Shown piece by piece: positions 1 through 3,000 of a DNA stretch of 16,838 nucleotides (its first letter is position 1; each line of letters begins with the position of its first letter). The position numbers were made by a program. The stretch lies in UHGV virus genome UHGV-1653291, one strand, 5' to 3'. This stretch comes from a virus.

Positions 1-3000
1 TAAGATCAGGGTTGGTGTCCATCGGTAATGGACTAAAAGTTGGTGGTAGTGTTACTGGTAATTTGACCGGAAACGCAGATACTGCGACCAAGATCAAGAC
101 AGCACGTAAGATTGGGGGCGTGGCATTTGATGGATCGGCAGATATCAACTTGCCTGGAGTCAACGCTACCGGTAATCAAAACACTACAGGTAATGCTGCG
201 ACCGCCACGAAACTTCAGGCAGCCAGAACGATTAACGGTGTGTCATTTGATGGTAGTGCAAATATCACATTGACCCCTTCAAATATTGGGGCATTGGCAT
301 TAACTGGAGGGACTCTTTCAGGTGGTTTAACTGCTGCTGGTGAGGTTATTTCAAGGTCAGCAAATGGTCTGCGTATTGCCTATGGCAACTATGGATTCTT
401 TATCCGAAATGATGGATCAAACACATATTTTATGTTGACAGATTCGGGTAACAGTCTTGGTACGCACAATAGCTTAAGGCCGTTTATAATTAGTAACCAT
501 ACTGGCAATGTTACAATTGCAACTAAATTAAACGCGAGTGGTGGTATCACTGGATCTTTATCGGGTAATGCAAGCACAGCAACCAAATTGCAAACTGCAA
601 GGACAATTAACGGCGTAAAATTTGACGGCTCGGCAAATATTGAAGCGTTTCCGCCAGGTGTTCCGCTGCCGTGGCCATCAGATACACCACCTGCAGGTTA
701 TGCAATCATGCAGGGGCAGACGTTTGATAAGGCAGCATATCCGAAACTGGCTATTGCCTATCCTTCAGGTGTTATTCCAGATATGCGCGGCTGGACAATC
801 AAGGGCAAACCCGCCAGTGGCCGGGCCGTATTGTCTCAGGAACAGGACGGCATAAAATCGCACACCCACAGCGCCAGCGCATCCAGTACGGATTTGGGGA
901 CGAAAACCACATCGTCGTTTGATTACGGCACTAAATCCACGAATAACACCGGGGCGCATACGCACAGTCTGAGTGGCTCTACGGGGTCTGCCGGTGTTCA
1001 TACTCATGGTAATGGTATTCGTTGGCCGGGAGGCGGCGGTTCTGCGTTAGCATTTTATGATGGCGGTGGGTTCACTTATGTCAAGGATTCACAGTATCAA
1101 GTAAGCCCGGAGACTTCTTCCTATAGATCGTATTATCAACGTATTCAGACACAGTCAGCAGGTGCTCATACCCACTCGCTGTCTGGTACTGCAGCAAATG
1201 CTGGTGCACATGCACATACTGTCGGTATTGGTGCTCATACGCACTCCGTTGCGATTGGTTCACATGGACACACCATCACCGTTAACGCTGCTGGTAACGC
1301 GGAAAACACCGTCAAAAACATCGCATTTAACTATATTGTGAGGCTTGCATAATGGCTTTCAGAATGAGTGCAGAAGCACAAACTATCCGCGTTTTCAATT
1401 TACTTGATGGAACCAATGAATTTATTGGTGAAAGTGACGCATATATTCCGCCGCATACAGGTCTGCCTGCAAACAGTACAGATATTGCACCGCCTGATAT
1501 TCCGGCGGGTTATGCAACCGTTTTCAATGCAGATGAAATGAAATGGGAACTGATGGAAGACCATCGCGGAAAGACCGTCTATGAAACGAAAACGGGAGCA
1601 GCCATTTATATTTCTGAACTTGGCGTATTACCTCCAGACGTGACAGCCATTTCCCCGGAGGGGGATTATCAGAAATGGAACGGCAATGCGTGGGTGAATG
1701 ATGAGAATGCAGAGCGTGATGCGCTTGTCAGAGCGGCTGACTCTCAGAAGAAAGAGCTGATTGCATATGCAGGTGAAATTATTGCCACTCTGCAGGATGC
1801 TGTCGATTTAGATATGGCTACCGAGGAAGAAAAGTTAAGCCTGACACACTGGAAAAAATACCGTGTGCTACTGAATCGCGTTCAGCCGGAAAATGCCCCT
1901 GATATCGAATGGCCAGAATTAGTGTAAAGGCAAGATGATTTAAGGAACAAAACCGCCAATATGTTTATTAGCGGTTTTGCATTAAGTCAAAACAACCCTT
2001 TAACGGAGCTGGCCGCGCTGTTAAGGGATGATGTCACCTTATCTTTGAAGCCGGACAGCATATTGCTGAACGATGAGTTTACCGCAGGTTTCTGGCTGGG
2101 AATCATTGACTGGAGTTAGGCCAGTAGTATGATGCTCGCAAAACGAGATCCAATTTAGATCCTTTTACTGGTGGATTATCGTTCGATCAGTGAGAGACTT
2201 CGTGCATGACCGAAAGTGTTGTGGTAGAGTTCTCTTAAAACCACGTAACGTGGTTATGATTGTGGGTGTCTGGTTGGAAAGTGACCAGATATGGAAACAA
2301 AAAGCCCGCAGATAAATCTGCGGGCTTCTTGCGACATCCACGGAAAACCAACAACAACAATCCATGGGCGCCTCGACAACTCCCATTATACGTTGGTTTT
2401 CCGTGGACGCAAGAGCGAACATATGGATAGACCAATGCCGTCTCTACGTTCAGCTTACGTTTGTAATTTGTCGCCGGAGTTCCAGCCTCCAAAGCACCAT
2501 ACGCACAAGCTGCCGCTGGTGTTATCTGATGCTTTACAGCGCATTAATGGGCGTGATCTTACGTGTGAGGTTGCGTTCTACGTTAATCAACCGTCAGAGC
2601 GGAAGCGCCGGATAAACGAGCATCGTCGTCGGGCGATTAATGCTGTGATCGCTGCGATTTTGCACCATGTAAACATCATTTCTAAGCGGGTTCTGGCTAG
2701 TGCTGAGGCGTTGGCTGATTTTTGCGGCCTGTCTACCGTATCCGAAGCTGGGAACAAGTCTATAACGCGCTGTACAAGGGCGTTGTCGCAACTGAAAGCG
2801 TTAGGTTTTATTGATTATGAACGTCGCTGGGATAGGGTGAATAAACAGTATTGGCCAGCGAAAATAGAGATTCGTGATCAACTGCTGGAAACCGTTGGTA
2901 TTACTGAACAAGCATGGAGACGTGCGGTTAGCCAGAAACTTAATTACTTCAATGCGAAGAATAGCGAACGGCTTAAAAAAGCGATAACGGAGGCTGATTA

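Follow-up and report, generated by a model that had tools for sequence, protein, structure and literature searches.

The control region of a plasmid-type replicon in UHGV virus genome UHGV-1653291 was analysed within a stretch of 16,838 nucleotides (nt), referred to here as the window. The replicon is carried by a myovirus-type phage-plasmid of about 47-52 kb and encodes the initiator RepA (repA, 2423-3271, plus strand), whose leader is predicted to hold a variant of antisense-RNA replication control that stands outside the CopA family. An antisense RNA of about 82 nt, read leftward from around 2378 to around 2296, is probably made from this leader and probably represses RepA. A mechanism by which it could do so, the refolding of the repA messenger RNA (mRNA) over its own start region, is put forward more tentatively.

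A predicted antisense RNA in the repA leader

Relatives of the replicon were gathered by protein search, from the encoding contigs and by motif scans, and form two diverged sets. Group A has the window-type leader and a RepA that is 60-100% identical, and comprises the window type, L008, L009, L014, L020 and many loop variants. Group B (L015-L019, L030-L036, L044 and L067) has a RepA that is about 60% identical. No published description of this replicon's control region was found in literature searches.

Leftward transcription is predicted to end at hairpin B (2303-2326), which can form on both strands and which sequence, folds and covariation identify as the second stem-loop (SL2) of the antisense RNA and its intrinsic terminator. 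The perfect hairpin with an 8-bp stem that an initial annotation of this DNA had placed at 2304-2325 is indeed present, with GCCCGCAG (2304-2311) paired with CTGCGGGC (2318-2325), and is in fact longer, as A-T pairs extend the stem to 2303-2312/2317-2326 around a TAAA loop. The predicted stem energy is -22.9 kcal/mol. Past the stem, the minus strand reads UUUUUGUUU, with TTTTTGTTTC (plus-strand positions 2303-2294) directly following the stem. The U-tract of the terminator, UUUUUGUUUC (2294-2303, minus strand), is kept as an A-run of the plus strand in all relatives, including the RepA relatives L013 and L074 discussed below. The same annotation had called this a strong leftward intrinsic terminator, which is borne out by a scan of the whole window on both strands for perfect stems of 9 bp or more that contain six or more G-C pairs and are followed by at least 7 T in 9 bases: 2303-2326 was the sole match, and 100 dinucleotide-preserving shuffles yielded no equivalent site. 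A generic terminator scanner missed the site, its rule on loop length being the probable reason. Compensatory changes are found at four stem positions among 21 sequences, a single pair being seen as AU, UA and GC, and the UUUA tetraloop is invariant in group A. A perfect stem closed by this tetraloop is unlikely to serve as a recognition loop.

Hairpin B could also be thought of mainly as an insulator or attenuator of transcription into or out of repA, acting in both directions or on the sense strand, rather than as the end of a small RNA. The symmetric stem and the short UUCUU that follows it on the plus strand would suit such a role. However, this plus-strand tail is poor and is absent in group B (GGCCUCUGCGG), whereas the minus-strand U-tract is kept, and a conserved promoter faces the hairpin at a distance of about 80 nt. 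The candidate repA promoters P1 and P2 (see below) lie upstream of hairpin B and so place it inside the repA transcript, which further argues against a primary role as an insulator, a role that we regard as very improbable.

The promoter that faces the terminator was overlooked in the initial annotation. It lies on the minus strand at 2385-2412 and consists of a -35 element, TTGCGT (2412-2407), a 16-nt spacer and a -10 element, TATAAT (2390-2385). The TATAAT is unchanged in 26 of 26 aligned family sequences; the arrangement is TTGCAT-18-TATAAT in group B and TTGAAA-16-TATAAT in L013, and L074 also has the TATAAT. Every relative in groups A and B carries a minus-strand TATAAT and a -35 element of the form TTGC(G/A)T 80-95 nt upstream of the terminator. 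The common order in all of them is TATAAT, -35 element, GGAGUUGUCGAGGC (the first ~14 nt of the predicted RNA), a G+C-rich hairpin and the minus-strand U-tract. The leader thus presents, in sequence signals that are seen directly by comparison of the relatives, the arrangement of cis-antisense control: an opposite-strand promoter in the rep leader facing an intrinsic terminator, with a product fully complementary to the leader.

The predicted RNA (2296-2378, minus strand), whose two ends are accurate to a few nt, would consist of an invariant 5' tail, a variable first stem-loop (SL1) and SL2. Its predicted fold (-41.1 kcal/mol, z = -6.1) has a free 5' tail, an SL1 with a large U/G-rich loop, and SL2, and the same architecture is shared among the relatives at predicted lengths of 79-91 nt. 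Relative to the window, these sequences are 95-100% identical over 2295-2337 and 93-100% over 2363-2392 but only 57-78% identical in repA, indicating that the non-coding blocks are more conserved than the gene itself. The earlier statement that no minus-strand gene exists here needs some amendment, as three minus-strand open reading frames (ORFs) overlap the region (2165-2422, 2235-2492 and 2254-2379). Near-identical relatives differ by indels of +2, -1 and -3 nt, so that there is no coding constraint on either strand across 2353-2362.

No Rfam family matched the window at its gathering threshold. The best matches at a relaxed threshold were Thr_leader (31 bits against a gathering score of 55), trpB and a terminator fragment of CsrC on the minus strand; they were rejected as generic combinations of a hairpin and a terminator, because all of them score below the gathering score of their own family.

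Strand-specific structures and a hypervariable loop

The initial annotation had suggested fold prediction of both strands as a check, and each strand indeed yields its own conserved structure, as expected of a sense/antisense RNA pair. On the minus strand, SL1 (2333-2372) is built of the stems 2338-2344/2361-2367 and 2333-2336/2369-2372. In group A, 97.9% of the alignment cells of this helix are paired, one pair occurring as GC, GU, AU and UG and several G-U pairs being invariant; read on the sense strand, the same helix is only 69% paired, and SL1 is therefore a minus-strand structure. On the plus strand, hairpin C (2327-2414), with 23 bp, consists of a base helix (2327-2333/2408-2414), which covers the bases AAGA of a Shine-Dalgarno (SD) sequence, a long helix (2337-2352/2392-2407) and an apical mini-hairpin (2364-2368/2382-2386). 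Here 98.9% of the cells are paired, three pairs of the long helix show compensatory changes, and the G-U variants are valid on the plus strand only. Further upstream, hairpin A of the sense leader (2266-2292, plus strand), predicted from folds, contains ATG 2291 in its stem and lies outside the predicted antisense RNA. Its sequence is wholly different between relatives, yet a hairpin is predicted at the same position in each, and near-identical copies carry the loop variants GGAAAGTG, GGAAACTG, GGAAAATG, GAAAAGTG and GGAAAACG.

These structures bear on the possibility that the leader is a regulatory RNA of the sense strand only, in which hairpins A, B and C would act as protein-binding, stability or temperature elements and the minus-strand signals would be by-products. 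Hairpins A and C clearly covary on the sense strand, the antisense -35 element is weak, and the antisense transcript is known here from sequence alone, all of which would agree with this idea. It leaves unexplained, however, why the TATAAT, which is unpaired near the apex of the sense structure, should be invariant and why the SL1 helix pairs so much better on the minus strand. Moreover, the conserved A-run makes sense only as a minus-strand U-tract, and the related replicons are known antisense systems with the RNA at the same position. A purely sense-strand element is, therefore, unlikely, and an antisense RNA that represses RepA remains the preferred reading.

The apex shared by SL1 and hairpin C is occupied by a hypervariable patch (2353-2362, both strands), which reads CAACAACAATCC in the window. 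Plasmids that otherwise hardly differ show at least eight versions of this patch, set apart by substitutions as well as by the indels mentioned above. Natural variants of the SL1 loop include CAACAACAACAATCC and CAACAACTAACC. Identity to the relatives is 28-72% over 2345-2362, as opposed to 93-100% in the flanks, and group B likewise varies at the equivalent apex. A structure specific to the antisense strand, with variation concentrated in its loop, is characteristic of the cis-antisense class, and the patch is a candidate specificity determinant. In I-complex plasmids, a few nucleotides in the loop of RNAI decide incompatibility (PMC10724649). By analogy, it is plausible that the SL1 loop is an incompatibility determinant here.

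The sense target loop (2345-2362) is A/C-rich, contains AAC repeats and resembles an ARN-type Hfq-binding motif, and the antisense loop and tail are U-rich. Judging from these compositions, an involvement of Hfq is conceivable.

The RepA start and a proposed refolding switch

The ORF at 2291-3271 matches Pfam PF02387 (IncFII_repA) at 1.3e-43, and RepA scores 232 bits against NCBIfam NF040977 (RepA_IncFII_LM), above the cut-off of 70, placing it in the IncFII/IncL-M superfamily of initiators. Against the strict IncFII equivalog, TIGR03474, it reaches 79.2 bits and falls short of the cut-off of 446.9. Homologs that are 58-85% identical have 277 amino acids, and their first residue aligns with ATG 2435 (MPSLRS...). 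ATG 2291 lies in the same frame as repA with no stop in between. This codon is absent from L008, L009, L014 and L020, and the loop indels put it out of frame in close relatives. The N-termini of the homologs, together with the loss or frameshift of ATG 2291 in relatives, therefore indicate that 2291-2422 is a regulatory leader and not protein. The comparison identifies ATG 2291 as not being the RepA start, as the initial annotation had suspected, and database annotations that begin there as too long. The accompanying suggestion that this ATG marks a leader peptide fares less well, since the codon is missing from relatives, lies in the stem of hairpin A and reads straight into repA, so that it cannot define a separate peptide.

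By homology, RepA would start at 2435, or possibly at 2423. ATG 2423 is preceded by an SD of good match (AAGAG, 2411-2415). It shares the reading frame of ATG 2435 in the window and L014, whereas the two codons are in different frames in L008, L009 and L020. Public RepA annotations are inconsistent among near-identical plasmids, the leader being translated as a 44- to 48-residue N-terminal extension in some of them, and need correcting. In the +2-nt variant pTD225C4_47 (L075 1148-1984), the RefSeq RepA has 278 amino acids and starts at the equivalent of ATG 2435, while window-type copies (NZ_CP032259 and phage vB_YpM_44) are annotated with 326 amino acids from the equivalent of ATG 2291.

A mechanism can be proposed on this basis. 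The antisense RNA would be transcribed leftward from TTGCGT-16-TATAAT (2412-2385), end at the 2303-2326 hairpin and its U-tract, and be complementary over its full length to the repA mRNA (about 2296-2378), where it would cover hairpin B together with the 5' arm and apex of hairpin C and leave the 3' arm of the latter uncovered. At high copy number, the SL1 loop and the 5' tail would make first contact with the apical loop of hairpin C, after which the antisense RNA would seize the 5' arm of that hairpin. The released 3' arm (2392-2405) would then refold onto 2422-2436 and bury the RepA start region. RepA translation would drop, and replication initiation with it, resulting in negative-feedback control of copy number that would also set incompatibility.

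The inhibitory structure in this scheme is helix E (2392-2436, plus strand), an alternative helix between 2392-2405 and 2422-2436 that takes in ATG 2423 and the first two bases of ATG 2435. When the antisense target is blocked, this helix is the minimum-energy fold in six of six group A leaders. Of its cells, 95.5% are paired, with two compensatory pairs, even though conservation is poor around its 3' strand. The computed cost of opening the ribosome site at ATG 2435 in group A rises upon blocking from 3.1-7.0 to 7.8-11.4 kcal/mol. Group B would achieve a similar result by different means. Its leader contains an ORF of 33-162 codons that in L015-L018 ends in an ATGA over the repA start (the ORF of L019, with about 66 codons, extends to 12 nt past the repA ATG), and the liberated 3' arm is predicted to pair with the SD of this leader ORF. 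The opening energy of the leader-ORF ribosome site is predicted to increase from 3.0-7.2 to 9.2-17.3 kcal/mol in eight of eight group B sequences. As modelled, the two groups would share the logic of a three-strand switch made up of a target strand, an anti-SD strand and a ribosome site. The modelling lends moderate support to the formation of helix E under antisense blocking. For the refolding mechanism as a whole, it leaves a prospect that we rate a little short of even.

The opposite sign of regulation has to be considered in the same context, as capture of the 5' arm of hairpin C by the antisense RNA might free the SD AAGAG (2411-2415) for ATG 2423 and so activate RepA. Bases 2411-2414 of this SD are paired in the base helix of the unbound fold, and the opening energy of ATG 2423 is slightly lower upon blocking in L008, L009 and L020, as activation would predict. 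Against this, ATG 2423 is itself paired in helix E when the target is blocked, its opening energy in the window changing from 8.7 to 11.9 kcal/mol, and the clear shift in group B is towards repression in every sequence. An activator present in proportion to copy number would moreover cause runaway replication. To our knowledge, all known relatives (IncFII, the I-complex and IncL/M) use repression, which was also counted against activation. An activating antisense RNA is thus quite unlikely, and repression remains the sign that we infer.

Several points count against repression by a refolding antisense RNA. The RNA, its ends and its effect are predictions drawn solely from sequence. The antisense -35 element matches the consensus at 3/6 positions only, which is the reason why a promoter scanner did not list the promoter. 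Only about five independent group A lineages are available and group B is nearly without informative variation; the covariation statistics are consequently thin and affected by relatedness, making them supportive rather than conclusive in group A, and the group B alignments are too uniform for covariation. Selection need not lie behind the hypervariability of the loop, which could also stem from neutral drift or from slippage in a CAA repeat. The duplex energy of helix E is only modestly better than that of shuffled sequences (28-99 of 500 being as good), and the unbound leader already has the SD of ATG 2423 paired in the base of hairpin C. Finally, the opening energy of the ATG 2423 ribosome site shows no consistent change when the target is blocked, which makes the predicted sign of regulation conditional on ATG 2435 being the working start.

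Should the predicted antisense control be correct, the SL1 loop would be a sequence marker for predicting incompatibility between related phage-plasmids, and the setting of copy number during lysogeny, when the element is a plasmid, would be explained. It is possible, although we consider it doubtful, that a simpler three-strand switch, in which the antisense RNA takes hold of an anti-anti-SD strand and the anti-SD strand thus set free buries the RepA start, has replaced the kissing-loop, pseudoknot and leader-peptide machinery of IncFII and I-complex plasmids and that the fast-evolving SL1 loop splits the phage-plasmid family into many mutually compatible types. If so, SL1 types would decide which related phage-plasmids share a cell and which exclude each other as lysogens.

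Replicon surroundings and comparison with known systems

The region 2100-3300 is 99-100% identical to circular, non-mobilizable E. coli plasmids of about 47-52 kb and also, over the same range, to three 49-kb Yersinia myophages (vB_YpM_39, 41 and 44). Genes for a tail fibre and its assembly lie directly upstream, which identifies the element as a phage-plasmid. A 211-nt query (2230-2440) has matches in 71 of 5,426 complete E. coli genomes, every one of them on a plasmid. Further records in the plasmid collection come from Salmonella, Klebsiella, E. albertii and E. fergusonii, and the matches to the replicon in the phage collection are Yersinia phages. A plasmid of the E. coli reference strain ATCC 25922 (NZ_CP009073.1) matches 2290-2425 at 100%. 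No PLSDB replicon type is assigned in the two records that were examined. The genome contig collection gave no match when scanned with RepA, and a motif scan there returned only chance matches in unrelated genomes. Two proposed connections were rejected: PlasmidFinder p0111, which is a P1-like replicon, and Yersinia phage HQ103, which is an unrelated P2-like phage of 32 kb. In many relatives, a DNA invertase gene (hin, recombinase family) lies between the tail-fibre genes and repA (L002 2456-3010; L075 266-820). When a relative's invertase protein was used as a tblastn query, neither hin nor a remnant of it was found in the window (compare 1928-2105); this copy has therefore lost the tail-fibre switching module or has something else in its place.

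Two promoter-like sites precede the leader on the plus strand. P1 (2106-2133) is a sigma-70-like TTGACT-16-TATGAT with 10/12 consensus positions and is a candidate upstream promoter of repA; its TTGAC and TA..AT are kept in relatives of both groups. P2 (2202-2230) has a -35-like GTGCAT (2202-2207), a 17-nt spacer and an extended -10 TGgTAGAGT (2222-2230), and transcripts from this putative promoter would start at about 2237. The motifs TGnTAGAGT and GTGCA(T/C) are conserved in both groups at the 17-nt spacing. Given this extended -10, the 17-bp palindrome at 2239-2255 (AACCACGT-A-ACGTGGTT, both strands) would fall at about +2 to +18 of the repA transcript, where it may act as an operator or form a hairpin at the 5' end of the RNA made from P2. 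Its arms AACCAC/GTGGTT are invariant and its centre is variable among the five group A types, a pattern that fits either function, and ACCAC...GTGGT is present in the distant relative L074 too. The initial annotation had paired the palindrome with a -10-like TATGAT (2255-2260) as the operator of a CopB-like repressor. Both sequences exist, but the TATGAT is not conserved (relatives have TATGAA, TAAGTA, TGCGAA or TAAGAA). The repressor itself finds no support, as there is no copB-like ORF between P1 and the palindrome and the small frames there are interrupted in relatives.

Between P1 and P2 there are three GATC sites (2147, 2158 and 2185), two of them as GATCC, and a cluster of such sites recurs at this position in both groups, reading GATCG...GATCC...GGATC in group B, and in L074. 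This placement suggests Dam/SeqA-sensitive control of repA transcription or initiation. Downstream of repA, the stretch 3322-3520 is AT-rich, with 74-80% A+T in places, and contains a perfect DnaA box, TTATCCACA (3413-3421); it is the probable origin, arranged as in IncFII-type replicons. Beyond it, on the minus strand at 3604-3623, lies a G+C-rich hairpin, CCTCCGGCAAGTGCCGGAGG, that was listed as terminator-like.

The initial annotation had proposed CopA-type control as in IncFII plasmids. Its central idea, a leftward countertranscript that controls RepA, is the best explanation of the data, but the assignment to the IncFII CopA family does not hold. A true member of the CopA/CopT/CopB/tap system would use the terminator loop for recognition, the palindrome as the CopB operator and ATG 2291 for the leader peptide. 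The Pfam match of RepA and a layout resembling that of R1, with a countertranscript in the leader, two upstream promoter-like sites and a probable origin with a DnaA box downstream of repA, are in line with such membership, and a short antisense RNA with two stem-loops and a U-tail is also shared with CopA/CopT of R1 and R100. However, Rfam CopA (RF00042, gathering 60 bits) has no match in the whole window at the gathering threshold or in 2100-2600 at E<=10, whereas a positive control, the IncFIA/IncFIC-typed plasmid L073 with an incFII-family RepA and annotated tap and copB-type genes, scores 99.9 bits. The strict RepA model likewise reaches only 79 of the 447 bits needed, and RepA is about 31% identical to its IncFII counterpart over part of the length. 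In CopA, the terminator stem-loop II carries the recognition loop (CGCCAA, and UUGGCG in CopT), while here a variable and probably recognising loop sits in the separate 5' SL1. No UUGGCG/CGCCAA loop is present in the target region. Unlike IncFII, there is no copB and no tap: across the leader, none of the ORFs has a conserved start and frame in the five group A types, and candidate leader peptides in the window (frames through hairpins B and C, and ATG 2364) were rejected for the same reason. With neither ATG 2291 nor the TATGAT conserved, IncFII membership is hardly credible.

The three-part logic of the proposed switch is shared with other antisense systems. In the transcription attenuation of pT181 and pIP501 and in the dual-level control reported for pSK41, the antisense RNA binds one side of a leader helix, whereupon the other side is free to form an inhibitory structure. 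These plasmids are Gram-positive and unrelated in sequence, and their inhibitory structure is mostly a transcription terminator, whereas the structure predicted here buries the start-codon and SD region and is not followed by a U-run.

The closest relationship is to the I-complex (IncB/O, IncK, IncI1 and IncZ) and IncL/M plasmids, with which RepA shares the NF040977 superfamily and which likewise encode a countertranscript (RNAI/Inc RNA) in the repA leader. The window has no match to Rfam RF01089 (PK-repBA) or RF01087 (PK-repZ). In contrast, two RepA relatives exceed the PK-repBA gathering score of 45, namely L013 (63% identity, 49.3 bits) and L074 (37%, 56.7 bits), where the PK-repBA-type region (L013 2369-2489, L074 1055-1169) comes with a UUGGCG loop and a short leader peptide. 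Both share with the window, in the same order, the A-run, a GCCC hairpin at which the antisense RNA ends and, as the antisense -10, an ATTATA(A/C)C box, and L074 additionally shares the GATC cluster and the ACCAC...GTGGT inverted repeat upstream. The control region of the window is thus a derivative of the PK-repBA type, and since L013 and L074 keep the classical region, the switch to the window-type leader took place within this RepA lineage.

The differences outline what that derivation involved. Where the I-complex has its stem-loop I with the UUGGCG loop, the window has a 10-bp perfect hairpin with a tetraloop, and about 38 extra nt carry the new 5' stem-loop and the long-range hairpin C. 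Unlike the I-complex and IncL/M, in which the stop of repB or repY lies over the repA start, the window has no separate leader peptide. The UUGGCG stem-loop has, accordingly, shrunk to a plain terminator hairpin, with about 38 nt added and the leader peptide lost in group A. In group B, the leader ORF ending in ATGA over the repA start resembles the I-complex leader peptide, as does the GTGA overlap in L013. The long versions of this ORF (158-162 amino acids, with the ATGA overlap, at L015 2016-2504, L017 2016-2504 and L018 112-588) encode part of a RepA-like domain (43 bits against NF040977, over profile positions 53-164), which looks as though a duplicated piece of repA were in use as the leader peptide; in L016 the ORF has only 33 amino acids. 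By eye, with no formal pseudoknot search, no CGCC-type pseudoknot partner is seen near 2405-2435, the nearest loop being UGGGCG at the apex of hairpin C (2365-2370). Repression is predicted to proceed by refolding here, as opposed to the blocking of a pseudoknot in the I-complex and IncL/M, and, if this is true, an RNAI/pseudoknot control region has been rebuilt in these phage-plasmids into a refolding switch that works without a leader peptide.

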